In this document: one piece after another, positions 13,025-64,000 of the stretch
Layout of the letters: every line of letters starts with the position of its first letter
Position numbering within the stretch: position 1 is the stretch's first letter
Source: Psammoneis japonica
Lineage: Eukaryota
DNA: 64,000 nt
Assembly (NCBI GenBank): GCA_008632985.1
Contig: QPGO01000164.1
Coordinates: 62,001 to 126,000, forward strand
Reading direction: 5' to 3'
Translations under genes and position numbers: made by a program
Notes under the pieces: model-generated
The model's input: the letters and a program-made list of their open reading frames with translations, nothing else
Database searches by the model: none
Told to the model about the DNA's origin: nothing

Positions 13025-13117
13025 GGACTTGTTGTGCCGTAACTTGCTGTCTGTTCTTATCCTTTATTTAGTCGTGCATGCAACAATACGATCAATCTTG
13101 AAGGAAGAGGGAAAGTC

Positions 13118-25730: not shown

Positions 25731-25748
25731 TTTGTCTTTTGGTGTGTT

Positions 25749-36752: not shown

Positions 36753-38120
36753 TTAAATGAGCTCGAATCCGCATTCTTCAGAAAGGTCTGTCTGGTCCAG
36801 TCTCATTGCGTAGAGATCGCTAAGGTATATTCCACTCAGTTCATTCGACAAACCCCTGAGTCGATTCAAGTGCTCTTTGCACCCGTGGTTGGTATTGAAG
36901 TCTACCTTGCAGTAACAGCAATCACAGCAGCATACAAACGGTACTGTCATGAGTCGCTGTATTGTTTGCTTCCAGTGTTTCTTCCAGTCTTGTACCAGCC
37001 GCCACAAAAAGTTGTCGGAAGATCCTTTGGCATGTTTGATTTTGTAGTTTCCTTTCCGATACAAGTGAAGGTCCATACCGACGTGTCGGTACACGCGATT
37101 TTGGCAGCACATGAAAAACATCAAGCTCCAACCCAAAAAGGAAAGCAGATGCAAACCACAACAACAAATATAGGTATACAGATACAATCCTCGGTCGGGT
37201 AGCTGTGTAAAAATATCAAAATGATTGGTCACTCGAAGACAACGAATGCGCCCTTGACTCTCCAACATCTTGAAGGCTTGTTCAAAGGAGAGATTTCCAA
37301 CCATTGGTGAGGCAAAGGTAATGCAACTGACTGGCCAAAACTTCAATGCAGCATGAAAGGAAAAAACAGTCGCCAGAGCTCCTCCCAAACTATGCCCGGT
37401 GGAATAGACATGATAGCCTGGGTATCGTTCCAACAATCGGTTGACGTCGTTGCATATTTGATCAAATTTGCTTATTGAAGAAGAATCTTGCCGAAACAAG
37501 TAATTGTAAAATCCGTGATGAATCGAAACATTCCTACTGTTGTCGCCATCCTCCTCCAATTGGCATTTGTGTTGACTGAGAAAGGGATCGGCACTGACTT
37601 GCCAATCCTTTCGCGTCGTACAACCACGAAAGATGACGGCAATTTGTTTTCGGGCACTATTGACACAGATTCCATAAACTAGCTCCGTCTTCATATTCTC
37701 GTCACCGACAACTACAATGTCAAAGGAAGCCAAGGATGTTTCTCCAGTATCGGCATTAAACTCCACTTCCAATGCATTATTCTCTTGGACAATCGAATCA
37801 AAGGCCGACAGGTACAGCTCGGTGGATTCTTTACCAATTTCTTCTTGAATAACAAGCCGGTTTTGGGACACAAGTCGAACAATGTCGGCGGCCGAGATTG
37901 GTAGTTCGAGCAAACCGTGAATATCGCCACCTCGTGTCAACAATCCCTTGTTGGCCAGTGTTCGTAAATCGACGACACCGTACAAAATGATGGAGGCCAA
38001 GAGCATTTCGTACGTTTCATCAAATATATTCGGCCATTCAGCAGCAGCAGCAGCAGAATGCTGCTGATTAGTGTTCATATAAGATGGTAAGAAAGGCTCT
38101 TGCTTGCTGGGCGACGACAT
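36753..38120 (-). CDS. Class 3 (fungal-type) triacylglycerol lipase
   Basis: IAVIFRGCTT, IHHGFY, STGHSLGGALAT nucleophile elbow, TFASPMVGN, RVTNHFD, YRHVG. Start uncertain (38120 or up to 38228). Confidence 0.9.
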   Translation of the reverse strand: MSSPSKQEPFLPSYMNTNQQHSAAAAAEWPNIFDETYEMLLASIILYGVVDLRTLANKGLLTRGGDIHGLLELPISAADIVRLVSQNRLVIQEEIGKESTELYLSAFDSIVQENNALEVEFNADTGETSLASFDIVVVGDENMKTELVYGICVNSARKQIAVIFRGCTTRKDWQVSADPFLSQHKCQLEEDGDNSRNVSIHHGFYNYLFRQDSSSISKFDQICNDVNRLLERYPGYHVYSTGHSLGGALATVFSFHAALKFWPVSCITFASPMVGNLSFEQAFKMLESQGRIRCLRVTNHFDIFTQLPDRGLYLYTYICCCGLHLLSFLGWSLMFFMCCQNRVYRHVGMDLHLYRKGNYKIKHAKGSSDNFLWRLVQDWKKHWKQTIQRLMTVPFVCCCDCCYCKVDFNTNHGCKEHLNRLRGLSNELSGIYLSDLYAMRLDQTDLSEECGFELI

Positions 38121-38299
38121 GGTGAACGCAGGAAAGCCCATCACACAAAATGAGCAACGACGAGGGCGAGGATACGACGACGAGGTGCGATGCAGCTTTT
38201 GTCGTGTTTGGCATAAGAAATCGAACAAATCGGGCTCTATTTTTCACGAAAAGCAGTGTCCGTTGAAAAAATGTGAGCGAGCATGGAGCCCACAAACAA

Positions 38300-40190
38300 A
38301 AAATCTCGACCGCTCCTCAACAGACAAGGCCCTGCAACGAGGACTTGACCATGCTGGATGAAAATGGCTTGGGGTGTCCCTCCTTGGTCGGTGCTTTGTT
38401 TTCACTTGATGCTAAATGGCACTGTGCAAAAGAGTTCTCAAAAAGCGAACAATTGGCTCCGCTGTGCACAGCAGACATCAGCTGGTGGTCTGCTGACTCG
38501 CCCATTCTTGCGTCGCTTTGTGGTCATGGCAACACAGCTGAAATTCTTTGTTTCCCAAAAAGTGTCCAACTGTGAACAAATGAGCAGATTGCCAAGTTCT
38601 TCCTTTTCAGATCAGAAGCCTGGGGGAGAGCTTGTGCTCCCTGTTCTTGGCCATCATCAACAGCCTCAGAGGGCTTGCTGGTGAGCTCTTGTCCAGAGCG
38701 CTTGGCATTTGTCATCACCAGAGCTGTGGAACTGATGCACCAACTTTAAATTGGATCTCATAAAGCTTCTCTAACTCAGCTTCCAAGTTGGCACATTTCC
38801 AAACCTCTTGTTTGTGAGCCAAGCAGCCTCTGCTTTGGTGGGGCAACAAGCAGCAGAGCCACTTGCAGTCATGCGCAGCCCCCCGGCCATCAACGGGTCT
38901 TGCTTGTGACAGCCATGAATGAATGTGAATGTTGCCAAGTTTCCTGTCAGATCAGAAGCTTGGCCAAGAGTTTGCTCCTTGCTTGGTGCTTGGCCATTGT
39001 TTTGGCCTGAGCTTGCTCAGCTTGTCCAGTGTTTGATGCTTGTGCTTGGACTTTGTCGTCATGGAGCTCTGCAGAGCTTCTTGTGCACCAACTTGACATG
39101 GGATGTGTCAAAGTTTACCTGACTTGGCTCTCCAGATGGCACATCTCCAAGTTCTTGTGCATGTGCACCAAAGAGCCTGTTTTGGGGGAAAGTGGATGTC
39201 CATGTGTCACCCTGTTGTGCAAACCTGGCACACAGTCAACCTTGTTTGTGGTGCCAAAGGCAGCTGCTGTCAGTCAGTCTGTCCATCCACATCAGAGCGT
39301 CAACTTTTTGGTGCGTCAATTGAAATGTTGTCTGATCAAAGGTGTTGCTCTTTGCCGTGCAAATCAAGCACCTTTGATCAGATGGCATTTCAATTGAGTT
39401 CCCGCAAATTGCTGGCAGCTCCAATCACTCCATCTCTAATCACATTGTGCACATTTCTGCATGATTTTGCATGTTTTTCCTTGCGCAAATTGTCAATTGT
39501 GGCTGACACGATGTTCAAATGATTTCTGTTGCACCAAACAAAACACAAGGGGCAAAGTGTGCCTCCAACATGCAGCAACCAGAAAGCTGAGCACTTTGGC
39601 TGACCACCACACCTGGTGTGCTTGAGTGCACAAATCACAACTCAAAACCAGCATGGCTGTGCCACCCAAGCCATGTCTTTGCTGTTCTTTCCTCTCACAG
39701 GCCTTTCCTTGCACTTGTTTGCTTTTCTCATGTGAAGGCCAATGCATCCCATCTGACCTTTTCAGCCTTGTGTGTCTCAACACAAGCTTTGGCTGCCCAT
39801 TTTCTTGCTCAGCAACCCAGTCAAATGAAGGCAGATGGGAGCAGAAAATAGAAAGCTGATTTCCAAGATGGAGTGGGAGAAGCAAGAATGCCCTGGTGCC
39901 TCATGAGAGCCAAACAAGAGTTGGCAGGTGCGGAGCCCACCCAAGCAAGCCCAGATGATCACAATTGTCTCCACCGGTGGAGCAGAGTGCATGGATGTCC
40001 GTTGGAAAAAAAAAACAGCAGAGTTTGTTTTGTTGAGCACAAACGACAGAACCAAGCGTGCAGTGTGTTTTGAAACATGCAAAGTATTTTAGTGGAATAA
40101 TTGTGCAATTTTTTATGGACACAGAAAATGTGGCTTAAAATGCCTCAAGACACAAACAAGAAACAGCATGGGACCGATGGCTGTTGTAAG
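38300..40190. mobile_element. Hypermutated repeat block
   Basis: TpA/CpG depleted. Segment 39270-39510 is homologous to 56105-56345, part of the non-autonomous TIR element. Confidence 0.6.
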
Positions 40191-40211
40191 CCATTCACAA
40201 TTAAACACGAA

Positions 40212-42404
40212 TCAGTTAAAAACTGTCCAGCCGTACACCGTGCCAGAGTCTTGGGCGAAATAGAGAGTTGTGCCATCTGGGCTGAGTGACATCTCGGCAG
40301 TCACTGCGTCACCAAATCCAAGGGATATCGCAAAGTAGTCTACACCGTCAGCCGTCTGAGTGGAGTGGATAATGGCAGGGTCAGACTCGGCAAAGAAGAC
40401 TGCACTCTCGTCATGAGAAAGCACAGCTCGCGTCAGCACAAGCGAGCCCAAACCCTTGCTCCACCGCTCGTCCAACGTCGGGACATCGGCGACAAGGGCG
40501 GCGAAGACAGGAGATGCCATACCAATGTAGAGCGAAGTTGCAGCTTCATTCACAGTAGGGGTATTAGGAGGATCGAGGGACCTCGGGTTGCCACGGCCAT
40601 ACGGTTCGTTGCTTGACCCAATGGCAGCTTCATCCCAACGGCCACGAAGCAGATGGCTGGGGATCCAGCAGCGAAAGGAGTTACGTGCGATTCCGTAGTA
40701 TTGACGAAGGCCATTGGCGGCAATGGCGGGTGGGTTCCTCGAGAGCCAACCAGTTCCAGAAAGATATTTGACCGCAAAGCCAGTGGTGTCATCCCCGGAG
40801 ACAAAGTTGACCGGAAGCTGAAAGGCAAAGGTTTGTCCTCCTCCAATGTCGAATGGAATTACCGTGGCCGCCCAGGCAAGAATGTCATTCGTGTTGTCCA
40901 GGCCCTGGGCGTTGTTAAGAGCGGGATCAAACCCACCAATGTAATTGCCATAAGCGGGGTTGTGATAAATGGCGGGTGCAGTGTACGCCAAGGTACCGTT
41001 GAGGTTTGTCTCGGTGTAAAAGATTGCACCGCCGTCGGAGGCATCAAGGACCGTGAAAGATCCAACGGCGCCATTGTTGTGGGTCAAGTACACAAAGTCA
41101 CCAAGAGCCGAGATGACAGGAGTACCTTCGGCAACTCCACGGACTTCTGTGGCCCAAAGCACTGCACCGTCCGGGTGCGAAATCGCGGCGGTGTATCTGC
41201 GAGGAGTGAAAAGTACCAAATGTCAGATCTCTAATCTCATATCAACACACGCGCAACACATTCTTATAGTGCATCTGGCGAGCACAAGCAAAAGGGCATG
41301 ATGGACATAATTACACATGCAAACGCATGATAAAGTTGAAAGCGTATGCTTTAACACGATTATCAGGATACAGCATACAAGCAAAACGCCTACTCAACCA
41401 TCACAACAAGTATATAGAAAATGACTGGACAGCAACAACAAGATTGTTCGAAAGCGAAGAATGACTTACGTGTTACCAGCATCCATAATGACAGAGTAGA
41501 CAAGGAAGGCATCAGCACCAGTCGCACCATCGTGGATGAAAACTCCACTCTGACAAGTGTGCCGGGTTCCACCTGTGAAGGATCCGGGGCTGATTGGAAA
41601 TCCATCCAGAGACTCACCGGTCTCAGGGTCGAGTCCATCCAAAGTACCATCGGTACGAGTGACGTAAAGCACCGCGTTGTCGGGAGAAACCGTCACAGCA
41701 TTCTTGCCACCAACCGCACGGCCTCCCACAGCGAACTTTTCCCAAGGTTCCTTAAGAAATTCAAATGCACGAGGGGTTGGGCTTGGCGTTGGCGACTGAG
41801 TTGTCGGCGGCGAAGTAGATTGAGGAGTAGGGCTTTGCGTTGACGTTGATGGAGGTGAAGTAGGCTTGGTTGGAGGCAAAGTGGGACTGTTTCCGCTGTC
41901 AGAGCCTTTAGAATGGGAGACAGCAAGTGGAATTGATACCGCCAAGACCACCACCAGTGCGCATACTCCCAAAGCAATTAAACGATTACGCTTCTTGCTA
42001 CCACCACTGTCGACATCCGAAGCGCGCTCTTCCTCCTCTTCATGTTGCTGGCGTTGCCGACGAGGCTCCTCTTCGTCCACTCCACCAACGGGCATCGCTT
42101 CCGCAGCCTCAACAAATCGAAGGAGTTCGATCTGCGCTTGCATACGTTCGTTTTGTGCTTCAAGATAGTCCATTCGTGCTTGTACATCAGCAACAGAAGG
42201 TTCCTCTCGACGCTCCTCTCCATGGCTTGTGCGACGGTGTCCACGCCATGTTACTGGTGGCACTTTTTCATCATCAGTAGGAAGCTGGCATGAGATATGG
42301 TCTTGTACAGGGGTTGGAGGTTGCAACGACGGAAAATCATCGCCATCTTCGTCATCACAACTAATGGCCGAAGCTCTATCTTGGTCTTCTGGGTCGCCGT
42401 CCAT
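40212..42404 (-). CDS. Type II membrane protein with Pro/Thr stalk and PQQ-like beta-propeller (paralogue A)
   Basis: ATG 42404, TM LIALGVCALVVVLAVSIPLAV, PT linker, intron 41469-41197 joining NT|YTAAISHPDG, propeller-like VSPDNAVLYV and LSPDGTTLYF..GTVYGW. Confidence 0.75.
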
Positions 42405-43819
42405 GGTCGTGTTGCTGATATACACAATCTTCTGCTGGGTTTCGTCCTCTCGCTTTTCAGTCCTTCTTTTTGTATGGAGCAAAACAACCGCACTCTTCCT
42501 TCTTTTGGTTTGTATGGAGCAAAACAACCACACTTCTGGGAAATGAGATGCGCGACTCGCAGTCGCGTATTCACAAAACTTCTTTGCGACCTCGAGCAGG
42601 CTGCAATGAAAACATTATGTAGGCAAAGCTAGAGGTTGCAAAAATCAACGCAACGCAGACGCAAAACCATCATTTTTACGAAAATGGGGCAGGCAAAGAA
42701 TCAGCGTCGCGTGCTAGTTGATGTGGGCCAAGTAGTGAATGACATTTGGGCGTCGAACACGTCACAGCTCGCCAACCGACTCAATGTTCTCCGCATTTCA
42801 GTGTGGATGCAAAATCTAACTCAACGAGAATAATGAGCGCAAAGCAATGTGGTATTTCTGACTTTGGCGACAAGGTAAATTCAAAATGGAGGCAAGGCAA
42901 AAAGAATTTTATGTCGAACTTCAGCCCAAGCACGAAAATCGTCGTCACATCTTTCACGGCACACAAGAACGTCCTCCACAGTTGAACCCAACAATGAGAT
43001 GCAATGGAGAGTGTTGCACATCCAACAGTGGCCATGCTGCCAGCTAGGATGCTGCAGCGGGCGAGGCTCATAGCTACAACCGCACAGCTTCAGAAGCCCA
43101 TCATACCTGTCGTCCGTCCTTACGCGCTCACATATGGCATACTTTATCATGAGCTATAGCTAGCACGCTCTACTTACGGAGCTCTTCGTATCTCTTAGCT
43201 ACTCTAGAGTAGAGAGGGCTAGCTAGAGAGCTCTCTAGAGCTAGCTAGGCGGACGACTGCTACCGGTAAACTAGTAGCTAGTCGTAGCTAGATAGAGCAG
43301 AGAGTTGCGATTGAGATACCCTAAAGCAGCCTAAAGAGATGGCACACCAGTAAATTCTGGAAAATGGGTCGGGATTTCGTAAGTTCGATCTTTCGGCAGG
43401 TGAAGATACATAGCAGGTGCACAGTGCTCTGTGCCACACCCCCACACGATTGCTGGTGCTGGTGAGATTTTGACTATAAGACCTCTCCTAGAGCGCTTAC
43501 AAAGCTAATTTTTTCAGCAAGTAGGCCCCATCATGACATGCCTCTCAGACAGCAACCAGATCCTTTCTTAGTCCATCTGGCAGAGAAAAAATAAGCCCTT
43601 TCATCCCGGGTAGTTATGACGCGCCTCTACATTGCACAATTTATCAAATGCTTTTTACTTCACGTATCCCCCTGACCCCTGCTATGCTACAACACCCCCG
43701 TCGTGTCATTATTCGCACCAAAATAATTGGCAAAGTCCATACAGTCAAGAAGTGAGCGGAACGTGGACTCTACTCTGTAGCATCATTTCTTTTTCGACGA
43801 GCTCGCTTCTGAGGTTTGG

Positions 43820-49383: not shown

Positions 49384-50055
49384 TGTTGAAGGTATCTTTC
49401 TGGCTGGGATTTTGACATTTTCATCGAATTTTTATTCAGAAATTGAGCTGTGAAAAGTTTCGAAAAACGAAAATTGCAAAAAGATTACAATTTTGTTGTT
49501 GCATGATGAGTGATGAGCGCGTCGCGTCAATAACGCTGATGGTTGTTATGAGCGCGGCAATGATGGACTGTTGACCTTCGATGCTCTCTTCTTTCAACGT
49601 TGTCTGCTGTCCACAGTGTCACGGTGTTTTGTGCCTCATGTGAAACTCGCTTCAAAACTTCGAGCTGCGTTGACATGCCCGCGCCGAATCACAAATAATG
49701 AGACAAATGACACCAAAATGATTGCTCGTGTTCTGATATGATAGATCAGAAACAACAGAGTGGGACAAGATTTGGCACGATCGATTATTGATGACTTTTG
49801 GTTGCTATGATATAACTCTTCCTCTCTACTACCGGTAGCTAGCTAGAGCGAGTATGATAGGCATGGCAATTCCATTGAGGCGTGGCCTCGAGGTCACAAA
49901 GGAAGTTTTGCGATTACGCGACTACGAGGTCGTGCTACGGGAAAGATAGAGTTCGCATTTCCCAGAGAGTGGTCGCATTTTGCTTCCTTTTTGCATTTTT
50001 GCATCGAGAGGGGGGAAACCCATCAGAAGATTGTCGCTGCACCAGCAACGTAACC

Positions 50056-52602
50056 ATGGACCGCCACCCAGAAGACAAAGAGAAAAGGGCATACATTCAT
50101 TCTACTAGAGCTTCGGCCAGGAGGTGGTATGACGAAGATGACGACGATTTTGCATCGCTGCAGCCTCCAACCCGGATGCAAGACCAAAACTCATGCCAGG
50201 TTCTCATCGATGATGGAAAACTGCCACCAGCAACAAGGCGCGGACACCGTCGCACAAGCGATGGAGAGGAGCTTCGAGAAGAAACTGTTGTGGAAGATCC
50301 AAGAAGAAGCGATGCCGTCGCCAGCAGCAGCATAGCTCCGACAGGCACAGGGGCTTTTGCCATCCGTGGCAGTCAGGTCCGCCATCGGTCTTCTCCTGGG
50401 ACTCATCATGATGAGGAGACTCTTTTTTCCGATGCGCCAACCGTCGCCACGCCACCACCTCCGCCGGCGCCAGATGAAAGGACCGTACTCGTTGAAGCTG
50501 AGATTGCACAAGAAGATGCTGATGTACGAGCACGAATGGACTATCTCGAAGCACAAAATGAACGCATGCAAGCGCAGATGGAACGCCTTCGATTGGCGGA
50601 GGTTGCGGAAGTTGTGCCCATTGGCGGTTTGCCTTTTGATGGAGAGGAAGATGGCATGGTGGACAATGAAGAGCCTCGGCAACAACAGCAAAATGAAGAG
50701 GAGGAAGTGCTCGCTTCGGATGTTGACAATGGCGGAAGCAAGAAGCGCAACCGTTTAATTGCTTTAGGAGTATTCGCACTGGTAGTGATTGCCTTGGCGG
50801 TGTCAATTCCACTTGCTGTCTCCAATTCTACAGGCGCTAGCAGCGGAAACAACGCAAGTCCCAATTTGCCTCCAACCGAGCCTGCTTCGCCTCCTTCAAC
50901 ATCAACTCCAAGCCCAACTCCTCAATCTACTTCACCGCCGGCAGCTTTGCCTCCGACGTCAACTCCAAGCCCAACTCCCCAATCTACTCCGCCGCCGACT
51001 CCACCACCAACTCCTCGAAGGTTTGAATTCTTAACGGTACCTCGGCAGAGGTTCGCTGTGGCAGGCGGACCGGTGGGTGACAGCAATGCCGTGACCATTT
51101 CTCCCGATAGTGCGGTACTTTACGTCACTCGTGCCGATGGTACTCTGGATGGACTCAACCCAGAGACGGGTGAGTCTCTTACTGGATTCCCAATCAGCCC
51201 CGGATCCTTCACCGGTGCAGCCTCGCACTCTTGTAACAGTGGGGTTTTCATTCACGATGGTTCGGCTGGCGCAAATGCCTTCGTTGTCTACTCTGTCATC
51301 ACGGGCGAGGGAAACACGTAAGTGGATTTGTGCTCGCGTGACGATGCTGTTATTATTGTTGTTATTGCTGCGTCTAGTCCTGAATATGTGGTTGTGTGGT
51401 ACATGCGAGTGGCCGGGTCATTGGCTTTGTCTTTGCGTATGAGAGCCAATGCGTTGTCTGTCGTGATTCGTGGTTCCTTCATCGTACTCTTTCGAACGTG
51501 ATATGATGGCGATCGTGCCAAGTGACGACCTGAGTCATGCATGGGTCACCCGTTATGCATGTTTCTAGCCATTTCACTGCCTCATGAATTGGCGATCTAT
51601 ACTTTTCTACGCAGATTCACCGCGGCGATCTCGCACCCGGATGGTGCCCTTCTTTGGGCCACTGAAGTCCCTGGAATCTCTGAAGGTACTCCTGTCATCG
51701 CAGCTCTTGGTGACTTTGTGTACTTGACTCACAACCAAGGCGCGGTCGGATCTTTTACTATCCTTGATGCTACAAACGGCGGTGCAATCTTTTACACCGA
51801 GGAGAACCTCAACGGTACGTTTGCGTACACCGCCCCAGCCATTTACCACAACCCCGCGTATGGCAACTACATTGGTGGCTTTGATCCTACTCCCAACAAC
51901 CCTCAGGGCTTGGACAACACGAACGACATTCTCGCCTGGTCAGCCACGGTCATTCCATTTGACAGTGGAAGAGGCCAGACCTTTGCCTTTCAGCTTCCAA
52001 CCAACTTTATCACCGGGGACGACAGCACCGGTTTTGCGGTCAAGTACCTTAGTGGAACTGGTTGGCTCTCGAGAAACCCACCCGCCATTGCCGTCGATGG
52101 TCTTCGCCAATACTACGGAATCTCGCGTAATTCCCTCAGATGCTATATCCCCACCGCTACGCTTCGTGGACGTTGGGATGAAGCTGCCATTGGAACAAGC
52201 AACGAGCCGTATGGCCGTGGCAACCCGAGGTTCAACGATCCTCCCAATACCCCGACTGTGAACGAAGCTGGCAGTGAGCTCTACCTTGGCTTTGCAAGTC
52301 CTGTCTTTGCCTCCCTCGTCGCCGATGTCCCAGGCTTGGACGAGAGGTGGAGTAAGAATTTGGGCTCGATCGTTAATACCAGAGCCGTGCTTGCTCAAGA
52401 CGAGAGCGCAGTCTACTTTGCCGAGTCTGACCCTGCCGTTATCCACTCCACCAAGACGGCCGACGGAACAGACTACTTTGCGGCACCACTTGCTGGAGAT
52501 GGTGCCATTGTGACTGCCGAGATGTCACTTAGCCCAGATGGAACAACTCTCTATTTCGCCGAAAACTCGGGCACGGTGTACGGCTGGACAGTTTTTAACT
52601 GA
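50056..52602 (+). CDS. Type II membrane protein with Pro/Thr stalk and PQQ-like beta-propeller (paralogue B)
   Basis: Colinear with 40212-42404 on the opposite strand, same intron position (about 51318-51614), shared C-terminus GTVYGWTVFN. Confidence 0.75.
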
Positions 52603-53272
52603 TTCGCGGAAGGGTGAATGCAACAACCATTGGTGCCATTCTCTTTCTTATATTTGCATCTTGAGGCGTTTTTAAGCTACCAGTTGCTGTGTCCGTAAAA
52701 TAATGCACACTTATTGTACGAAGATACTTTGCAAGTTTCAAAATGCACTGCGCAATTGATTCTGTCCTTCGTTCCCAACAAAGTGCTACACTCCGATGTA
52801 GGGTCTCGAAGTGATCGCCATCAGGTTCAGCCATTAACAGCAGAGACAATCGCCCACTTTCAGCATAACGCATGCGTCATATAAATCTATACCGGTATGC
52901 GTTTGACGCGGTCGAATCTCATGCATGGAAAACCACAGAAAACCTTGATGGTTCTTTGTTTTGCGCGTCTGCGCTGTCATGTACGTGCAACCGCCGACAG
53001 GTCGTCATACAAACATTGTTGGGCTCTGTAGCTGGGAGCGATCTTGGTGTGTTGATCCGAAGAATGCCAAGTTTGAAACCTGTTGAAAGTTAAGATTGCG
53101 AATTTCGCAACCTAGCTGTGTTCAGCTCTTATGTGTACAGAAGAGGATATAAGCCAGATATTAGTTTGGACAATGCACACAGATCACAGTAAAGCGATAG
53201 CATGAGTAGTGTAGTCGTACCGTAGATTGCCGCCGAATTGTCCGTTTAGAATTATCTGCTTTCGTGCTTATT

Positions 53273-54253
53273 CTATTTTTGGACAAGACTGCTTTTATCA
53301 AAGAGATGTGAATACACCTCATTGTTGTAATCCATCTTGTAAAATTCATGGATTCGGTCTTCAAACTCGGTGTTGTTGAAATGCAAATGCGTCGTCTTGG
53401 CTGCGGTTGTTTGATGGCCGGGCTTTACAGCAAACATCGACTCGTTACCAAAAGGACCCCACCCACTCTTTCCATACTTTTCCCACAATCCAACACGTTT
53501 CAGGAGCCTTTCGGCATCCCCCGCTATATTCTTAAAGTCCCCCACAAAGTTAATATAGGGCCAGTATTTTGCCTCCATTCGGTTCCACTGTGGTCTCCAG
53601 TGAATGTCTTGGGTAAAGTTCTTTTCGACAATGTAATCAAAGAACGTCTCGAGAGATCCCAAATGTTTCCAACACATTTCTTTTGTCTGACCCTTGCACT
53701 GTCTTTTATAAAAGTAATTCCCAAAGTCATTAATACCCTTGTTCATGTACGCCGAAACCATGCGCTCTTTGGGATCTCGCACAAAAATGGCTCTCGTCCA
53801 CGTGGGATCCGTCATTTGTTTCGTTGCCTCTTGAATGGAATAACTGGATAGAAACTTGAGGCCATTGTACGAGGGATCGTAGGGCAATTTCGCACCGTCC
53901 GTCACGTTCCAATCCGAGTATCCCATGGCACGTCGACAGAGCTTTAGAAACTCGGAACAACCCACCTTGGCGGTTGCAAAAAAGATAAATTTGTACTCCT
54001 CCAATACAACGGGAGCTTGTTCATATCCAACTGTATAGACCGTGTCATATTTTGATATTGTCAGAGGTAGCGGTGGTTGTAATTGTGGTGCATGAGAAGT
54101 TGTGTTCTGGACGTGGGGGTCCAAGTTTATGGCCGTGAGAATCATAATGGTCACGCAACCTGCCGTCAATGCCAGCGCAAGAACCAGCACTAGAAACGGA
54201 GGCTTTTTTCTTGTACGTCTTGTTTGAAGAGGACGGTGTACATGATGTTTCAT
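53273..54253 (-). CDS. Sulfotransferase family 2 (Golgi carbohydrate sulfotransferase-like)
   Basis: N-terminal TM anchor, 5'-PSB FFATAKVGCS, 3'-PB IFVRDPKERMVSAY, DIHWRPQ, INFVGDF. Confidence 0.85.
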   Translation of the reverse strand: MKHHVHRPLQTRRTRKKPPFLVLVLALALTAGCVTIMILTAINLDPHVQNTTSHAPQLQPPLPLTISKYDTVYTVGYEQAPVVLEEYKFIFFATAKVGCSEFLKLCRRAMGYSDWNVTDGAKLPYDPSYNGLKFLSSYSIQEATKQMTDPTWTRAIFVRDPKERMVSAYMNKGINDFGNYFYKRQCKGQTKEMCWKHLGSLETFFDYIVEKNFTQDIHWRPQWNRMEAKYWPYINFVGDFKNIAGDAERLLKRVGLWEKYGKSGWGPFGNESMFAVKPGHQTTAAKTTHLHFNNTEFEDRIHEFYKMDYNNEVYSHLFDKSSLVQK

Positions 54254-54728
54254 CTTGCGTTTTTTTTTTTTTCAAAGTCTTTGACAACGCGGACAGGGAC
54301 GATGTTGGCGTCGCCGCTTTTGCAGAGCGTTGCAATGTGTGCCATGGGGGTGATGACCCTGTGCATCGAAATCGAAACCGCAAGTCCTCCCATCAGGTCG
54401 CGGATTTCAGTCCCGAGTACAGTATGGTAATTGACTTCTTGTCTCGCGCACGTAGTGCGCGGTTATTAGACTGTGTAGGTGTGTGTACGTGTGTGAGGTG
54501 TAAGTAGAATATACGTAGAATTACTGCTGAGTGAGTTGACATGCGGTGGATTTTCCGCCGGTACACAATCTACGTGGTCTACTTGGAAGATAAATTTATG
54601 TTTATCTCCGATGCTTTTACACATCATTAAAATTGCTTCTGTCTTTTAAATGTGTGTGCCGCAATTCAAAAATCTTACAGAACACCCCGAAAGAATTCTG
54701 GAATCTGCACAAAAAAATTTCTATTTAA

Positions 54729-55261
54729 CACGGGATCCGTGGATGCACCAGGGGAATCTGCGAAATGCGGGATGAAAGGGGAAAGGGGCAAATGTGAATG
54801 GTGGAAAAGTGACATGCTGTTGTTTTACCTTGAGGGACCCTTTGGTCAGCCAAACACGCTCATTGCTGATTTGACCCTCGCAGGTCCGTCCTTTCGGGGG
54901 TCGTGAAATTGTAGAGCAGACGCGGTCTCGAGAAATAATTTTGCACATTGTGTGTTTGACCATTGGCATCATGTAAATCTGAAAACGACACACACAAAAA
55001 ACGCGCATGCACGTTTTTCAACTTTGCATGACCTTCATAGCCAAATGTGTCATGTGACGATTGATCCTCAAGACGCGTCCCGTCACAACATTTTGACACC
55101 CCCCACAAGACGGACCTGTGATGGTCAGATGACAAGTGTGCGTGTTCGGCTCACCAAAGGGACCCTTGGGGCACAACAACAGCCCCTTGCTTTCCTGACA
55201 TTCCCATTTGCCCCTTTCCCCTTTCATCCCGCAATTCCCGGGTGCACCCGTGGATCCCGTG
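54729..55261. mobile_element. piggyBac-like MITE with long imperfect TIRs
   Basis: Ends CACGGGATCC...GGATCCCGTG with inverted similarity over more than 150 bp. Flanks are TTAA (54725-54728) and TCAA (55262-55265). Absent from unit 2 (empty site TTGA at 61982-61985). Confidence 0.85.
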
Positions 55262-55577
55262 TCAACGGTCCGAACAGGTTTCTCAAAATGACTTCAGATT
55301 AACCACAGTGAAACATCCACTGTTGCCAAAACACAGTGACTGTCGGATGAACAGATCCCGTGTTCTTCGCTCGCAAACAACACAACAACGCACAACAACA
55401 CCATGGCGAGAAACGCGAACGCCATCCCCTCATCTACAAGCTGGAAATGCAAGATGCTGTTGAAGCGGTTGGACAATGTGTGTGTGCTGTTTTCATGGGT
55501 CAAGTTGGGTTTCTTCTCGCTGCTTGTTGTTGCGTCATTTTACAACATTTTGACCCACGCCGTGTTCTTTGCTTTGT

Positions 55578-58500
55578 TGTGGCTGTTCGCCACCAACGCT
55601 GCTGGGGGGTGCGTCCCACTGTAGTTGGGAGGCGGCAGTTGGTGGTGTCAGCGCTTTGCTGGGGTTTCTTGCCCTGACGGGTTCCAGTCCCAGGTGGGAC
55701 TCCATGTGACATTGGGCCTGTAGAATTCTGCATGCGAGCTCTGCAGTGAATTTGCACTGCAATGAAAATGTGAATGATCGCCAACAGAAAAAGAGGCAAT
55801 TTTACGAACATGTCTCCTCCTTCATGCTTGGAGCACATCATTGACAGTTTGCCCGGGTGTGTTCTTCAGACATTGAAGAATGCACCCAGCGCATTTTCAC
55901 TCTCATGAATGTTGAAAATAGAAAGCCTTTGGCTTCGCAAAACAGGGAGTGTGAAACAATTTCGTAGAATTTTACACGTGGAAATGTGCGTGCGCGACAT
56001 GCGGCGCGATCCAAAAAACTGTTGATGTCACAGTGCCAATGGGAATCATTCAGCTCTCAGAGTCATTGCGTGGAAGTTGTGCAGAAGAGCACCAGAAATG
56101 TTTGTCATCAGTCTGTCCACCTGTCCGCACTCGAATGTCAACTCCTCGGGAAATCAATTGAAATGTTGTCTGACCAAGGGCATTGCTCTTCACCATCTAA
56201 ATCAAAACACCCTTGGTCAGACAACATTTCAATTGAGTTCCCGAAAAGTCAGTAGCCCCAATCACCCTCTCGTATGACATTGTGCATGTTTCTGCACGAT
56301 TTGGCATTTTTCCTCATGCAAAATGCCAGTTGTGACTCTTGCGACATTTTCGAATGATTCCCATTGAGCAGTGCGAGGTCCCACCTAGAGCTGGAACGCG
56401 TCCCCTCTTTGGGCTCACCAGCAACAGAGACCGCCGGTGCTGGGTGGGAGTGGAGGGTCAAAAAGCCACAACTGCTGCTGCGGCCTCGACAGGTGGCGAT
56501 GAGTTGCAAAGAATGCCACTGGCATTCAGGTTCGTTCAAGGCTGCATGCGGTGGGAGGTGGATGCATCTGTCCTTCCCCCTGCACTGCTGCAATGGCTGT
56601 TCGCCACCAACGCTGCTGGGGGGTGCATCCCACTGCAGTTGGGAGGCAGTGGTTGGTGGTGTCAGCGCTTCACTGGGGTTTCTTGCCCTCTTTGGGCTCA
56701 CCAGCAACAGAGACCGCCTCCAATCCGCCACTCTTGGAGTGCCAACAAGTGAGAAGGGGTTGGGCCAGAAGCGCAGCTGAGGGTGGGCACCGTTGCGAAC
56801 CCATCAGTTGGTGGGTGCTTCGGCTTGATTGATGATGTTTTGTGCCACAGGGGGGACCTCGGAGCCCGGGAGCAACGTGAAGTTGGACCGTCTTTGGAGC
56901 ACGCGCTGTGCAGGCGAGTGATGCGAGGATCCATGGTGCCATGTGGGGTCAAGCGTGGGTCCGGGGCCCCCAGTTGGTGAACGTCTTCGAGCGTGAAGGA
57001 CTTCGTCACGAACATGCGGAGCTGAGATTGGGTTGCCGCTGCGGCTGAGGCGTCCATCCCCAAGGTGACAGGCAAAGACTCGGAGTGTCGGGATTTTGTC
57101 TTGGACACTGGTGAGGAGAGGGTTGTCGACTCCTGATGTCGGACAGGAAAGGTGACCAACATTTGGCCCAGACGGTGTCCGTGGCACGGGCTCGCTCGTC
57201 AGTGACAGCTTCGTGGGCCTTTGCCGTCACAAGGCGGAGATCAGTGAAGAAACGATGTTGGGCGGTGGGAGTGGCATTTGCCAAGGTTTTGTCTGTGGGG
57301 CAAGGCGAGTGAGAGTGGCAAGGAGGTGAGACGGTGCACTGAATTTGCGGGAGCACGTGTTGGCGAGCAGATTTGCTGGCCCAGGTGTGCAATGAAAGTG
57401 GGAGACGTGTCGCAGCTTTCATTGTTGCAGGCTGCCGGTCCGCAGCATGTCGGCGCCGGGGTCGTCGGTGGTGATGGAGCCTTTGCCGCGTCGAGAAATG
57501 GAAGGCATGTTGTCACAGCACGTGTGGACAATGCGTTCTCTGACATTGACAGCGATGCCTGCAACGGATTCTTGCAGAGCCATTCCGGCAAGTTGGAGAT
57601 CAGAGTTTGTTGTTGCACCATCGGGGTTGTCGTCCGAGACAACAGCAGCTTGCAGATCTGGTGGCAGTGGAATTTGCCAGGCGGCAGGAGGGAAGTCGTC
57701 GTGGGGGCCTGGCAACAACACGCCGCCAAAACCTGGTTTGGCTGCGTCGCACGCACCGCAGCAATGCCCGTCGGCGGCAAGGAACAGTTCGGCAAGCCTC
57801 GTTGGATGAGAAGCAATGTCCATTGCCAAGGTGTGCAAGTCTTGGAGTTGGCAGCGAGCATGACGGTTGATTCGAGTGCGGGAGTTGCTCGAGGTGGCTG
57901 GAGAGTGCTGGAGATTGGAGAGCAGGCCAGCGCTGCCAGACACCACCAACAGCATGCTGCGCACTTCGCCCACAAGTTTGTGGCATTGCTTGTTGGACAT
58001 GCGGCGGCATGGAATGGTGTCGGCAAGCATGTCCAGGAGGCGTTGTCGTCGATGTGACGGCAACTGGATTGTCCCTGCTAGCGTGTCAATGAGCCAGCCC
58101 AAAATGACTTTGACAGTTGACCAAGACGCATCACCTTTAAGAAGCTTCTTGAGCGAGATAGTTTCGCGCCGCCAGTGAGCATCGGAAGGTGTGTTGGGCC
58201 GGAAGACTTGGTCGTCAATGTGCAAGAGGCGGCGATGTAACTTGTTGAGGCAAGCTTTCGATCCTTGCGCGGCGCACATCTTGTCGTTGATGTAGACATC
58301 AAAGTGCTCCAACAGTTGGGAGCCTCGCTGGTGTCTGTGACGAAGAGCGGCGGGAGAAGGCAGGCGTGACACACGGCTGGCTGGAGCTGCAGTGGAAGGC
58401 GGCGGCACGTCGATGCGCGGGGCATCGTCGTGGGGTGCTGGAGTGGATGCCGCCTGTTCAAGTGGATGAATCGGAGGGTCCCAGGCTGTGGGATGATGGC

Positions 58501-61500
58501 TGTTTGCCAAATCGACAACAGTTTCCGTTCCCACACAAAAGAACGGTGGACTCTCGGTCCAGCCCATGGGTGGGACGAGAGGCAGCGCTGTCAACGGTTC
58601 CTCGCCCGGGCCCACTGGGAAGGCTGCCCCAAGCTTTGGCATGTCCTGGGGGCAGAGCCCAACACGACAGAAGCCGTCTGAGAGATCGAGCTTAAGCATG
58701 TGCACTGGGCCATGCTTCGGATCAGCTCAAAAGATCTTGCAGAGGGACCTGTCGAGAGCTCGGCCGAATTGCATTGCCTCCGGTGGGGCGTGTTTCACGG
58801 TTTCGTCATTGATCCCGTAGAAACTGTAATCAATGATGGTGCGTGGGTGGCGGTCGCGTTGCGGCACCACGCCCATCGGTGAGACGTGCAGGTGGGGCAA
58901 CTTGCAGGCTTCGCGGTGTGGCAGGACTGTCCAGCATCGCTTCTGGATCATGTCCGCCATGTCAGACTCGAGGAAACCCAGGCACTCGTTGGTGGACGGA
59001 TGGCTTCCGCGCTCTGTGGCCATCCGAACCTGGTCAGGTGTCCAGTCCTCCGTTGAGAACTGGACCGGTGCTCCGTCGGTGCGGAGATCGGAAAGAAGCT
59101 TGGCAGCTGGATGAGGCAACTGCTGAACATTCTCGGCCAGACACGGCTCCCTGCGCAGATGTGCAACGAACTGGCTCCAGCTTGAAGTTGGCAAGAGTTT
59201 GACATGCTCCTCTGCTGACTCACCCAGTCCATTGCTGCGTGGGCACTGCTGGTGCAGATCTGGCAAGTGGGCAGAGGAGGGCTGCAGGCCAGCTCTGGGG
59301 CTGGCCGGCCCCTGTCCTCAGATGGACGCCGCCGGCGCCGGCGCGGGTGCCGGTGCCGGTGCTGGGGCGCCACCTTCTTGAGGGTTGGACACGTGGTCGC
59401 AAACGAAGGCGCTCATTGCCGTCCTTTCTTGCGGTGAGAGGTTCCGGTGGGTGCTGCTGCGCTCACAGTTGGCGAAGCACGCACCCTTTAGATGATGCGA
59501 AAGGCACACTTCGCACGCGGTGCCACTCGGGTCCGTGGTTCGAGGCGCGAAGCGTCGCACCGTGGCCAAACAGATCCCAGCTTGTGCAAAGGCTGCTGGC
59601 CAAGCTCGCACCGGGTTGGAATTTGCAACGGCCGTGCCGGGGTCGCGACGCCCAGTGGCAGCAGCTGGTGCAGAGGTGGTCCCACTGTTGTGGGTGCTGG
59701 TCGAGCTCGTCTGGGGATTGATCGCCCTGTCTGGCTGGCCAAGCAAATGACGGGGCAACTGTGCCAGCAGGGAGAATTGCCCGTGTGGCACCTTGTGCGC
59801 CACTGCGGTGTAGTCGGGCACCCGGGGCACACTGCCTTGCATGAGCCTGCAAAGATGGACCCCCATGAGTGTCTGCACCTTGCAACAAATGCGGGGAAGG
59901 ACGTTTCCTTCGGCCAGAAGGGCTCCTGATTGCTTGAGCAAGTCGACCATGTCCCGCCAGTCGTCCAAGCAGAACTGCTGGAAAGCCACAGCATGTGGAT
60001 GGTCTGAGCCTTGGATGACATCCAAGACTGAGCTGGTGGCTTGGAGCATGCTTCCACAATGGCAAGTGGACGTTGGCAGCGGCACATCCTTGGTGCGGAA
60101 CTCCTCTTGTTCTGCAACGGTGGGTGTCAGGTTGCCTGCCAATGCAAGGTCGTGGCGTTCGGCCCAGACTTGCACAGCAGAACCTTGTCTGGCAAGGAAG
60201 AAGCCACAGGTGAAGGGTGATGCACCGGTGGTTAAGTCATTCACTTGGTGCACATGGGGTGCAACCTTCCCTTGCAACACCATCTCTTGTGGCTCCTTCG
60301 AAACCACAGGTGCCACACGAGACGCCGCGTCGGGTTCTTGGGCACGCGCCTCCAAGGCACAAGCAAAACACAGGCACCGCTTGGCTTTTGTGCTGTTGGC
60401 CCAAGCGTGGCACAGCACGGGCAAGGGTGCATCATCCAGCATGCTCAAAAGCAAGAGCCACACGGGTGTGGTCTGAGGGAAGGCTTCCACCAGAGTTTTG
60501 GGTGCTGCGGCTGCGGCTGCGGCTGCCAAGCGTGTTGCTTCCGCGCGTGCTGCATTGGCTCGGACTGTGTCAGCGAAGGCTGGCACGTGGTCGGTGTCAT
60601 CAACGGCCATTGAATCCAAGGCGGGCAGGTCCTGCAACAACGTGTGCCAACAATGCTCTTGCAGTCTGGCGTCCACCGCCAGTGGCGGCAAGGCTGTGGC
60701 ACGGTCGCCCAGACAATGGACCGGATCTGGATTCGCCGCGGTGTCGGTGGTGAGTGCCGTGCGCAACCAGTCGATGAGAGCACTCAAGTCCCCCACGCGA
60801 CCGTCATTTTGAATTGCTCCTGCTGGTTCCCACCAGGCTTGCAGTGGGGTGAGATCCCGAGTCAGCACGAGATGCAGGCAGGCAAGGGGGGCTTGTGCAA
60901 GATGGCGGATGTAGATGGTGTCGGTTTCCGGGGCGCCATCGGTCTGCGGCGGTGTCAGGTCGTCATCATCCACCAAGGTGCCTTCGAGGGCAGCCATGTT
61001 GGCCACAGCAGGTGCCACTTGAGGGCCCACAATGTCGAACGGAGCGTTGGGCATCTCGAGAATGGCAACAAAATTACCAGGTGGGACGTCTCCATGAAAA
61101 CAAAACACGCGTCCGTCCCACGGCGAGGTCTCCACCGGGTCTCTGATGTGTGCAGAGGGCCGGTGGATGCAGGTGATGCGACAACCTGTGCCTTGCCGCA
61201 CTGGCGCCAAAGGGGCCTTGGGCACCATGTCGCTCGAGTCGATGATGTGCTCGAGCAGCGTGGCGGCCAGGTCGGGAGCAGTGACGGCAGTGTCGTGCCA
61301 ACGGAACAAATTTGCGCACTCCCCACCCAAGTGATCTCCTTGGCTCATCCACTTGTCGTGGCATGTTTTTGGAGGGGCCGGTGGTGCTCCACCGGCGTCC
61401 ACAGGAGGGACAGCAGCCATGAAGGGACAAAGGTTGGTGCATGTCGCTCCCTTTGTCAAAAAGTTGCAACTGCTGCTGCGGCCTCGACAGGCGGCGATGA

Positions 61501-61590
61501 GTTGCAAAGAATGCCACTGGCATTCAGGTTCGTTCAAGGCTGCGCACGGTGGGAGGTGGATGCATCTGTCCTTCCTCCTGCGCTGCCACA
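55578..61590 (-). mobile_element. Ngaro/DIRS-type tyrosine-recombinase retrotransposon, degenerate, with split direct repeats
   Basis: gag 61420-59318 ending CLSHHLKGACFANCERSSTH. RT SPMGVVPQRDRHPRTIIDYS, KLDLSDGF, PMGWTESPP, VYIND. RNase H CDAAKPGFGG, TNSDLQLAG, CDN. YR N-terminal fragment LGAPDPRL. Repeats A1 61457-61590 = A2 56457-56590; B1 56595-56720 = B2 55580-55675 plus 56403-56440. Confidence 0.9.
55676..56402. mobile_element. Non-autonomous TIR element inserted into the Ngaro B2 repeat
   Basis: Imperfect TIRs of about 26 bp (gacgggttccagtcccaggtgggact / ggtcccacctagagctggaacgcgtc). 4-bp TSD CCCT at 55672-55675 and 56403-56406; uninterrupted B1 has a single CCCT. Confidence 0.8.
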
Positions 61591-62586
61591 ACTTCTGCTT
61601 GAGCACAACCAACAGCTCTTCCTGCAGGGTGTGGCCAGTTGCACGGCTGCATCGAACCCAAACGCGCGCGACCAACTGGCCCCACCCCGGCCAACTCATC
61701 TCGCACACGTGTGCGCGGTTGTCAGACTGTGCAGGCGTGCACACGTGTGTGAGGTGCAAGCAGAACATGCACAGAATTGCTGCTGACTGAGTTGACAGGC
61801 GGTGGATTTTCCGCCGGCACACAATCTACAGGCTCTGCAGGGAAGACAAATTTATTTTGGCCCCTGAGGCTTTTAAATGTCATTGAATTTTCTAACGCCT
61901 TTTGTTCACACATGTGCCAATTCAAAAGTCTGACAGAACACCCCGAAAGAACTGTGGAATCTGCACAAAAAAAATTTCTATTTGACGGTCCGAACAAAGT
62001 TGTCGCGAAGCGCTTCTCAAAATGTCTTCCAATTGAACACAGCAAAATGTCTGCTGTTGGCAAAACAGAGTCACTGTGGGCAAAATAGATCCCCGTCCTT
62101 TGCGTGCAATGACAGCGGCACGACAATGCAATGCACAACAACACCATGGCGAGCAATGCAAACACCATTCACTCATCCACCAGCTGGCATTTCCAGACAA
62201 GATCAAAGCTGTTGGACAATGTTCATGTGCTTCATTCCTGGGTCAAGTTGGGTTTCTTCTCATTGCTTGTTGTCGTGTCACTGCTTGCTTTACAACGTCT
62301 TGACCCACGCCATGTTTTTTGCTTTCTTCGCTTCTGCTCCATCGCGTGCGTGCCACAGCTTTTCCTGCAGGGTGTGGCCAGTTGCTCATCACATCAAACC
62401 CAAATGTGCGCGACCAACTGGCCTTGCCCTGGCTAACTCATGCAGCACTGCACTCCCCCGCGCTGACCGCGCTGACCCCCGGCTGACCCAGGGCTGACAC
62501 CGCGTGCAATCCCACAGCGCGCGGCACTGCACGTCAGCAGTGCGGAAAAAATGACCGTGCATTCCATGCAGACCACGAGCTCTGGC

Positions 62587-62712
62587 GCCACCCGAGTGTG
62601 TCACTCGAACTCTGACGTCCGCAAACACTGGAGCGAACCCCAAAGTTCCGCCACCCGAGTGCGTCACTCGAACTCTGACGTCCGCGAACACCGGAGCGAA
62701 CCCCAAAGTTCC
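62587..62712. repeat. 63-bp tandem duplication
   Basis: gccacccgagtg(t/c)gtcactcgaactctgacgtccgc(a/g)aacac(t/c)ggagcgaaccccaaagttcc x2; all three differences are at CpG sites. Confidence 0.85.
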
Positions 62713-62719
62713 GACCATT

Positions 62720-64000
62720 TGCTCACCCGAATCGCTCGCTCTCTCCCCCTCCTCCTCCTCCTCCTCCACACACACACAAAGATGTGACCAACCAAATGCA
62801 AACACCACATCGTGTCGCATCCGGACGACCTGCAATGACTGCTGTCAACATGCCCCACCCAACTTGACAAGCAAATCTCAAAGATGGTGGAGGTGAGTTG
62901 TTGCCATGAACCGTGGCTTCCTTCCTCTTTGGAAACAGGAGGTTTGTTGTTTTGTCTTTGCTTCTCAGCTGTGCTGCTGCACGTGCGTGGCACACCACTG
63001 GTGGTTTTTGGTGTTGGTTTCCACTCAGCTGAGCCCCATTCTCCAGCTCAGCCCACCCACTCAGCTGAGCACAATGATCCCTCATCGGCTCAGCTGAGCC
63101 TTTTGTTGAATTTTTTCTCAGCTGAAGGATTTCACTCACCTGAGATTCTTTCTTCCTTTGTTTGCAGACCCATCTCCACCCCCACCAGGGCGAAGTTCTG
63201 CTGCTTTGGTGTCTCAGCAGAGGACTGCTGAGATTGCCAGTGCTGGGAGACGTGTTGCTGGAGCTCCTCCTCCTGGTGGTGCCTCCACAGCTGCAGCTGT
63301 TGGCGGCGGCAGTGCTGGTGCCAGCGCCGCTGGAGCCCGTGGCAAGGGCAAGCGCAAGGGTGCCAAGGGCCAGAGCCAGCCCAAGAGGCACACAAGGGTG
63401 CACACCAGGCTGCATCTGCCCATGCTTCTTCTGTGGAACCTGGCATCATTCCCTTGCCTCAGGGCGAAAAGGAGCTGTTGCAGCACCTCATTGCTTGCTG
63501 CAAGGAAATTATGGATCTGAAGGTTCCGCCCACTGTTGGGGAAGGCCTGATGCCCAGCAACCCCAAGGCTGCTCACAAAAGTTTTGCTGAAAATTTGGGT
63601 GCTGTTTTTGCCTTCAAGGCGGTGTTTGGATCTGGCCAGAAGGTCCCTGGCAAGGTTTTTGCCACCATGCATGGAACAAACTGTCTGCCTGACCACGTCA
63701 AGAGGCTTCGTTCTGAGGACACTGAGGCCAATTGTGAACATCTCTGTGCCAAGTGTTTCAATGTTTTAGACAAGCACTTTCCCCTGGGACACTCCATGGG
63801 TTTTGGGGCATGGTGGGGCCGACTTCAAGCCGCAATCAAGGAGGACAAATTTTGGGCCCCCGGTGTTCATGGCTGCAATGCACCTGGAAAGGGTTTGCTG
63901 TGTTGCGGATTCCTCATCATTCTTCTCAAGCACCAAGTGGTGAAGGACCGTCAGCACCAGTTGGAGCTGGTTGTAAAACTCTAGGTTGCAGTCTGTAAAA
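62720..64000. mobile_element. Unclassified hypermutated repeat, runs off the window end
   Basis: TpA-depleted, Cys/His-rich ORF remnants such as 63433-63984. No family motif recognised. Confidence 0.4.

Follow-up and report, generated by a model that had tools for sequence, protein, structure and literature searches.

Sequence traces of a probable TpA-specific A:T-to-G:C mutational process in repeated DNA of a presumed diatom

What process could replace every TpA dinucleotide of one repeat copy by CpA or TpG in another, and in which direction did the change run? This question arises from a 64,000-nt stretch of contig QPGO01000164.1 (positions 62,001 to 126,000; hereafter the window), in which one repeat occurs beside a sulfotransferase gene (copy 1) and again at the head of a decayed retroelement (copy 2). 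A patch of copy 1 contains 11 TpA, and none of them is found in the corresponding patch of copy 2. An initial reading of the sequence without database searches (the sequence-only reading) had proposed that the TpA were converted on both strands of the DNA. The source organism is probably a diatom, and probably a pennate one, judging from its protein relatives. We consider it probable that the difference between the copies was left by a mutational process that changes A:T to G:C specifically at TpA and acts on the repeated and mobile DNA of this diatom genome.

The eleven-site difference and the direction of change

Global alignment and BLAST recovered the two copies as one repeat, with both patches at the places where the sequence-only reading had put them (Table 1). 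Its description of them as a before-and-after pair is loose, because copies that are about 80% alike are not parent and daughter; the identity is about 80% in part A and about 74% in part B of the repeat. The difference itself is as complete as had been described. All 11 TpA of the copy 1 patch are changed in copy 2, eight of them to CpA and three to TpG, and other differences are indeed few, since only six of the 17 differing positions among the 104 aligned ones lie outside the 11 TpA (54480, 54484, 54485, 54515, 54531 and 54542). The patch of copy 1 accordingly counts 11 TA and 1 CA, that of copy 2 counts 0 TA and 11 CA, and each has 15 TG. Transitions in the patch run 13 times from A/T in copy 1 to G/C in copy 2 and twice in the opposite sense (binomial p 0.007), and changed T or A positions make up 11 of 22 within TpA but 2 of 35 outside it (Fisher p 2e-4).

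The same asymmetry extends over the whole of part A, where A/T in copy 1 is paired with G/C in copy 2 at 24 transitions, compared with five of the opposite kind (p 5e-4). TA of copy 1 corresponds to CA of copy 2 at nine sites and to TG at six, and the opposite correspondence does not occur. All the asymmetry of part A is located at TpA, because the TpA sites are divided 15 to 0, whereas the remaining transitions are roughly symmetric (9 versus 5). No transition asymmetry was found in part B (16 versus 22). Five TpA are common to both copies, at 54571, 54597, 54618, 54722 and 55541 in copy 1 and at 61827, 61853, 61874, 61979 and 62291 in copy 2; a pyrimidine precedes all of them and a pyrimidine also follows nine of the ten (61874 reads TTAA). 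The patch form of copy 1 is not private to this copy, because two other contigs of the sample, from run X2, fit the patch of copy 1 better than that of copy 2 (11 differences over 174 nt and 5 over 66 nt); copy 1 and copy 2 differ from each other at 14 sites within that same 66-nt stretch.

The direction of change could be read from the coding region of the retroelement. The minus-strand frame from 61825 to 57419 comprises 1468 codons; it is interrupted by TGA at two places and ends at a third TGA. Its reverse transcriptase (RT) open reading frame (ORF) has 65 relatives at E ≤ 1e-3 with 37–54% identity. A tblastn search with eight RT homologues matched the window at 56934–59245 only. A Pfam search of the element's own ORFs gave no match; RVT_1 was matched below threshold by six of the ten homologues tested (E 2.6e-5 to 2.5e-3), and aligning the element with its relatives shows RT motifs. 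Tyrosine amounts to 0.2% of the 435-residue query and 0.34% of the whole frame, compared with about 2% in the 65 relatives, and the histidine and cysteine contents of the protein are raised.

We aligned the element with 42 long relatives and inspected the columns in which tyrosine is the commonest residue at a frequency of at least 30%. Among nine such columns, the element has CAC, TGC or TGT in five (three His and two Cys), Tyr in two and Phe or Asp in the other two. The tyrosine of the DGFYR motif, present in 42 of 42 relatives, is TGT (Cys) in the element. No column with a majority of His or Cys was turned to Tyr in this alignment. Conserved columns were retained at 240 of 328 overall, compared with 2 of 6 for those with a majority of Tyr. 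As judged from this alignment, the direction of change at the tyrosine codons is from TpA to CpA/TpG. The catalytic YVDD reads YIND, because of which this copy of the element is, by its predicted protein, dead even though its frame is open. Two RT relatives, P0118 (no Tyr in 406 residues) and P0120 (one Tyr in 353 residues), are nearly free of tyrosine, unlike the others at about 2%, and might stem from copies in other public assemblies that underwent the same hypermutation, although they cover too few tyrosine columns to judge this.

TpA is presumably the older state also at the 11 sites of the patch, because the process traced in the blocks of the window yields exactly such a difference, and because the copy 2 patch lies within a TpA-free domain and the copy 1 patch outside it.

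TpA-poor blocks, strands and flanks

TpA is depleted far beyond the patch. Over the entire window the observed/expected ratio (o/e) of TpA is 0.37, and CpA and TpG have ratios of about 1.4. The 1-kb bins over recognisable genes have TA o/e of 0.5–0.7, CG of about 1 and CA+TG of about 1.2, as compared with 0.00–0.23, 0.06–0.9 and 1.4–1.9 in TpA-poor bins (0–12 TA per kb), which are those at 9001–10000, 13001–16000, 18001–20000, 26001–36000, 39001–40000 and 55001–64000. Delimiting blocks by TA-to-TA gaps of at least 300 nt gave six blocks totalling 24.7 kb, or 38% of the window, with TA o/e of 0.054 (a level that is partly circular by this definition), CG of 0.43 and CA+TG of 1.68; the remainder of the window has 0.54, 0.93 and 1.22, respectively. 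The longest TpA-free run extends over 1949 bp (30817–32766) and consists of complex sequence rather than a simple repeat. The edges of the blocks are sharp, as TpA found every 10–40 nt ends abruptly, for example at 8562 and 25451. The copy 2 patch continues a 752-nt TpA-free run extending from the retroelement, and copy 1 switches from TpA-normal to TpA-poor at 54726/54727, which is the left edge of an insertion with inverted arms resembling a miniature inverted-repeat transposable element (MITE). Contigs of run X1 agree with TpA-free stretches at all or all but one of 303–415 nt, at a word depth of 39–70.

The gain of CpA+TpG in the TpA-poor blocks roughly matches their loss of TpA, and together with the change of tyrosine codons to His and Cys this bears out the proposed conversion of TpA to CpA/TpG. 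In each of the four R-TA-R contexts (R, purine; Y, pyrimidine), the gain of CA is about equal to the loss of TA. The loss of TpA is separate from that of CpG, because the young block keeps a CG o/e of 0.69 at a TA o/e of 0.08. Both TpA and CpG could drain into CpA/TpG, TpA much faster, which fits the comparison of the young with the old block. Stop triplets in the blocks comprise 110 TAA+TAG and 1022 TGA, as compared with 1217 and 1438 in the remainder of the window. Conversion of TpA to CpA/TpG eliminates stop codons and introduces none, which would account for long open frames without content and for the lack of Pfam matches among the ORFs of the blocks.

Both strands were affected, as the sequence-only reading had argued from the mixture of eight CA and three TG in the patch. 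The two dinucleotides occur at similar frequency in every block, with 380 versus 447 in the retroelement frame and 1165 versus 1182 in the old block. In nine repeat pairs (1768 aligned nt) we counted 40 double differences between TG and CA, where shuffling gave a mean of about 4.4; the corresponding count in three pairs of duplicated genes lying in TpA-normal DNA (2480 nt) was 3, for an expected 1.7. No doublets between TA and CG were found in the nine repeat pairs. The simplest reading of the TG/CA doublets is that an ancestral TpA, sometimes a CpG, was converted independently in each copy on either strand. Because the copies were converted independently, the conversion would have taken place after duplication, in the chromosome.

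The flanking bases distinguish the TA that survive. Among the 71 TA in the blocks, one is R-TA-Y, 34 are mixed and 36 are Y-TA-R, whereas the 1411 TA of normal DNA are divided into 433, 739 and 239 (chi-square p 4e-14). Relative to normal DNA, the TA density in the blocks is 0.4% for R-TA-Y, 7% for mixed and 24% for Y-TA-R. R-TA-Y reads T-A-pyrimidine on two strands, the mixed class on one and Y-TA-R on none. The context bias for which the sequence-only reading had suggested a test is also found in the pair itself, where the changed strand is the T-A-Y strand at eight of the nine informative sites, those with T-A-Y on only one strand. A rule for the choice of strand based on T-A-C only was dropped in favour of T-A-Y after tetranucleotide counts. 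We regard the dependence of conversion on the flanks as a lead.

The affected DNA is multi-copy wherever this could be measured, and the three gene-duplicate pairs, with 75–84% identity, are unaffected. The targets that can be recognised comprise the retroelement with its terminal repeats, together with MITE-like repeats; nothing recognisable is contained in four of the blocks. The region 54300–62500 is multi-copy. When 4841 contigs of run X1 were aligned onto it at a likeness of at least 80%, their summed depth, which is not equivalent to a copy number, was about 500 over the coding part, as compared with 39–70 for near-identical contigs, and reached thousands over the A and B parts, being as high over part A of copy 1 as over that of copy 2. 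At 55670–56491 the summed depth of 25,000–121,000 is far above that of the rest of the region and indicates very high-copy short repeats. The segment 56146–56244 is a palindrome with related pieces at 34825–34975 and 39268–39524.

Copy 2 is located at the head of the retroelement, and copy 1 lies beyond its tail. The MITE-like insertion of copy 1, whose inverted arms are 77% complementary, is absent from copy 2 and from another copy of the family in a run X2 contig. Short repeat pieces are permuted around the element: 55580–55675 matches 56594–56689, 56457–56593 matches 61455–61591, and 61612–61699 matches 62355–62441. Other contigs of the sample fuse part B straight onto the segment 61592–61699, and the repeat units therefore also occur head to tail. 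A simple pair of long terminal repeats from a single insertion was ruled out, since the likeness of the copies is only about 80% despite a nearly open coding frame and since the repeat pieces are permuted. Two tandem 63-nt units, 95% identical, are located at 62586–62711 within the TpA-free block.

Table 1. Features of the window, by position
Feature	Position	Strand	Remarks
TpA-free block	8562-10299	.	TA o/e 0.03
TpA-free block	13268-15722	.	TA o/e 0.07
TpA-free block	18517-19207	.	TA o/e 0.03
Old TpA-free block	25451-36259	.	28 TA in 10.8 kb (o/e 0.04), CG 0.22, CA+TG 1.74; no Pfam match
TpA-free block	38413-39849	.	TA o/e 0.06; palindromic repeat in common with 56103-56359
Sulfotransferase gene	53273-54253	-	upstream side adjoins copy 1 part A
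Copy 1 part A (A1)	54442-54729	+	TpA-normal, 23 TA in 288 nt
Copy 1 patch	54461-54564	+	11 TpA; presumed unconverted state
MITE-like insertion in copy 1	54727-55270	.	544 bp, 151-nt inverted arms, 5 TA (TpA-poor)
Copy 1 part B (B1)	55280-55578	+	TpA-poor, 3 TA
Young TpA-free block	56386-64000	.	TA o/e 0.08, CG 0.69, CA+TG 1.55, GC 58%
Decayed retroelement coding region	56934-61825	-	3' half (59245-56934) with 38-53% identity to RT-like proteins
Copy 2 with flanking 88-nt direct repeats	61612-62441	+	direct repeats 61612-61699 and 62355-62441
Copy 2 repeat	61699-62328	+	A2 61699-61986, B2 62014-62328
Copy 2 patch	61717-61820	+	0 TpA; 8 CpA and 3 TpG at the 11 sites; presumed converted state

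The host is taken to be a diatom because of the relatives of a class-3 lipase ORF and because of an RT ORF relative from Epithemia clementina. The closest named relatives of the lipase ORF (36753–38228, minus strand) are from Seminavis robusta, Nitzschia inconspicua, Bacillariaceae sp. and Asterionellopsis glacialis, and its top protein match overall is 74% identical. The three genes of the window with Pfam matches all sit in TpA-normal DNA. An inverted duplication of about 2.5 kb (49882–52782 and 40029–42533), which bears ORFs and is TpA-normal, has 75–83% identity without TpA loss, and a second duplicate pair (36466–37078 and 23953–24568) with 84% identity also lacks TpA loss. Two patches, 43055–43382 and 23514–23806, have a composition opposite to that of the repeat blocks, with an excess of TpA (o/e 1.68 and 1.45), low CpA+TpG (0.66 and 0.81), a GC content of 45–49% and many CTAG-type words. 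The window contains one N, at position 349.

The proposed process and its alternatives

The process that we propose would act in place on chromosomal double-stranded DNA, copy by copy and on either strand, turning TpA into TpG or CpA. Copy 2, continuing the TpA-free block of the retroelement, would have lost all 11 TpA of the patch in this way, and the first 285 nt of copy 1, beside the upstream region of a gene and outside the TpA-poor domain, would have kept theirs. Part A of copy 1 adjoins the upstream side of the sulfotransferase gene and may lie outside the targeted chromatin domain, which might explain its escape. The process would be fast relative to CpG decay and would remove TAA and TAG without making any, thereby leaving frames open and proteins ruined by the replacement of Tyr by His or Cys. 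As the most likely chemistry, an enzyme, possibly an ADAT/TadA-like deaminase targeted to silenced repeats, would deaminate adenine to hypoxanthine at 5'-T-A-3', preferentially where a pyrimidine follows. The natural target of TadA is the A of U-A-C-G in the tRNA anticodon loop, which resembles the T-A-Y preference found here.

The same direction of change and the same targeting of DNA could also be brought about from the opposite strand, by modification of the thymine in 5'-R-T-A-3' (TET/JBP-type, to 5-hydroxymethyl- or 5-formyluracil) or by its wrongful excision in silenced repeats, followed by copying or repair as C. 5-Formyl- and 5-hydroxymethyluracil mispair with G. A change of T to C at R-T-A is the exact complement of a change of A to G at T-A-Y, and all of our counts fit the two equally well. 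Neither the present data nor the cited papers, in their available parts, give support for thymine modification in diatoms, and the only published proposal for such a signature, in the available text of the preprint discussed below, is adenine deamination. We therefore consider a thymine-based route rather unlikely.

Repeat-induced point mutation (RIP), as known from fungi, would reverse the polarity. If the family originally had CpA/TpG, copy 1 would have gained 11 TpA by C-to-T changes at CpA on both strands, through a cytosine deamination of the RID/DNMT4 type or another. The unusual composition of the copy 1 patch, given below, would suit this explanation, as would the finding that C and G positions in CpA/TpG of copy 2 differ at 12 of 27 sites, compared with 1 of 32 for the others. 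Diatoms also carry DNMT4 enzymes related to fungal RID (PMC9998398, in its available part). However, no other repeat of the window combines a loss of CpA with a gain of TpA, the repeats showing the opposite, and tyrosine codons were changed to His and Cys rather than the reverse. The patch form of copy 1 is present in other contigs of the sample, and copy 1 would need to have been hit in its first part only, part B being without asymmetry. These findings make a change in the RIP direction improbable.

A-to-I editing of the RNA of the element by an ADAR- or ADAT-like enzyme, fixed by reverse transcription, would fit the U or T preceding the edited A and the presence of a retroelement beside copy 2. 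It predicts TA to TG on the sense strand only, whereas CA is about as frequent as TG and His (CAY) is at least as frequent as Cys among the outcomes. The copies were converted independently after duplication, the non-retro MITE-like insertion is TpA-poor too, and the edges of the blocks coincide with edges of chromosomal insertions. RNA editing is thus highly improbable, and the argument of the sequence-only reading against single-stranded RNA editing and reverse-transcriptase error stands on the same grounds. The absence of any special process (subfamily differences or chance in CA/TG-rich low-complexity sequence, selection against UpA in the transcripts of elements, or an assembly or base-calling artefact) can draw on the alternating GT/CA of the patch and on the possibility that the confirming run is the assembly's own source, but it is hardly credible in view of the significant Fisher and binomial tests, the 1949 nt of complex sequence without TA that chance could not produce, the replacement of an invariant tyrosine of the catalytic domain that selection would not bring about, and the X1 contigs that match the TpA-free stretches.

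Several observations weigh against the TpA-specific process. TpA as the older state at the 11 sites was deduced from context and not polarised site by site. The copy 1 patch is odd for the window, having a TA/AT ratio of 1.83 against 0.42 and a (CA+TG)/(AC+GT) ratio of 0.67 against 1.47, and only 1.6% of 104-nt windows have at least 11 TA. No family consensus could be obtained for the patch, as the scan of metagenomes with a 17-mer gave at least 120 loci that were all chance matches of 20–21 nt; longer patch patterns had no match among the genome contigs or among the viral contigs searched, and the protein frame across the copy 2 patch had no database match. Part A of copy 1 was spared while its part B is TpA-poor. 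Delimiting the blocks by gaps makes their TA level partly circular, a circularity that does not apply to the CG, CA+TG, flank and doublet measures. None of the 57 ORFs of the TpA-free blocks has a Pfam match, and a 355-residue ORF of the old block has no relative among 1.84 billion protein representatives. The repeat status of the blocks outside 54300–62500 rests solely on repeats within the window, and the sequence may have been confirmed by a run that itself supplied the data for the assembly. Some of the TG/CA doublets must derive from ancestral CpG and not from TpA, and the surviving TA may have arisen anew; if so, the bias in their flanks would mirror the context of C-to-T changes.

Relation to known systems and significance

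The closest counterpart has been reported from mutation-accumulation lines of the chlorarachniophyte Bigelowiella natans (Mettrop et al., bioRxiv 10.64898/2026.01.13.699255). According to the available text of this preprint, 231 of 302 nuclear single-nucleotide mutations fell in two integrated viral regions (giant-virus/virophage), and 230 of these 231 were A-to-G or T-to-C, all at TpA. Clusters of 1-kb windows were depleted in TpA and enriched in CpA+TpG, and TpA-poor coding sequences showed an enrichment of RT and DDE domains. The authors proposed a candidate deaminase resembling ADAT2 and identified no enzyme. Our locus shares with that case the change of A to G or T to C at TpA, whose product is TpG or CpA depending on the strand and which runs against the usual GC-to-AT bias, as well as the clusters of depleted and enriched windows and the link to RT. 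Bins of the window fall within both cut-offs of the B. natans type from the bin at 27001 to that at 35001 (nine bins), from that at 13001 to that at 15001 (three bins) and from that at 55001 to that at 63001 (8 of 9, the exception being bin 58001 with 1.38).

The two cases also differ. The host of the former is a rhizarian and the host of the latter a stramenopile; viral inserts were targeted in B. natans, as far as the preprint's available text describes, as opposed to a retroelement, its terminal repeats and MITE-like repeats here; Rho was 0.45 in the region of nucleocytoplasmic large DNA virus origin, as compared with TA o/e of 0.04–0.08 over 38% of our window; and de novo mutations were observed there, whereas our process is known from sequence traces alone. 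The present locus adds a preference of flanks, R-TA-Y being affected most and Y-TA-R least, and the independent conversion of paralogues, while, as judged by a term search, the main text of the preprint deals with neither flanking or trinucleotide context nor diatoms or stramenopiles, and its mentions of motifs concern other matters. No report of TpA-targeted hypermutation in diatoms was found in a full-text literature search, and among the papers that a further search returned, judged by titles and the openings of abstracts, only the Bigelowiella preprint concerns a TpA-dinucleotide process of this kind.

Fungal RIP is similar in hypermutating repeated and mobile DNA copy by copy through transitions, with sharp edges, ruined coding sequences and a dinucleotide signature. 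It converts CpA/TpG into TpA, so that GC falls and stops are created, whereas here CpA/TpG arise from TpA, with a rise in GC and a loss of stops, and gene duplicates with 75–84% identity are unaffected. Diatom DNMT4 is related to fungal RID, its function being unknown, and no RIP is reported in diatoms in the available part of Hoguin et al. 2023 (PMC9998398). CpG decay by deamination of 5-methylcytosine also feeds CpA/TpG and has left its mark on the older blocks, whose CG o/e is about 0.2, but it cannot remove TpA, and the young block lost its TpA while keeping most CpG. ADAR and ADAT/TadA enzymes share the change of A to G with a 5' U or T neighbour; unlike the present case, in which both DNA strands and non-retro repeats were changed, they act on RNA.

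Hardly anything is known of natural, targeted A:T-to-G:C editing in chromosomal DNA, and a single report came to our notice, a 2026 preprint that concerns one alga. What is new here is the same TpA-only signature in a diatom, more complete and with added mechanistic detail, namely the involvement of both strands, the independent conversion of copies, the preference for R-TA-Y and a rate faster than CpG decay. The process would explain many diatom repeats that have long open frames yet no protein-family matches, and it carries a warning for annotation, in that an open frame free of TpA should not, in such genomes, be taken as evidence of function.

We advance more tentatively, as a possibility that falls short of being probable, that diatoms have a repeat-directed DNA base-editing defence. 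It would be a mirror image of RIP, deaminating adenine in 5'-T-A-Y-3' on either strand of silenced mobile DNA until hardly any TpA remains and leaving frames open and proteins dead, and it might be homologous to the chlorarachniophyte process and represent an ancient defence of the stramenopile, alveolate and rhizarian (SAR) lineage. Diatoms are a lineage with genetic tools for seeking a natural DNA adenine deaminase. If true, the occurrence of the process in a diatom would suggest a widespread genome defence in marine protists.

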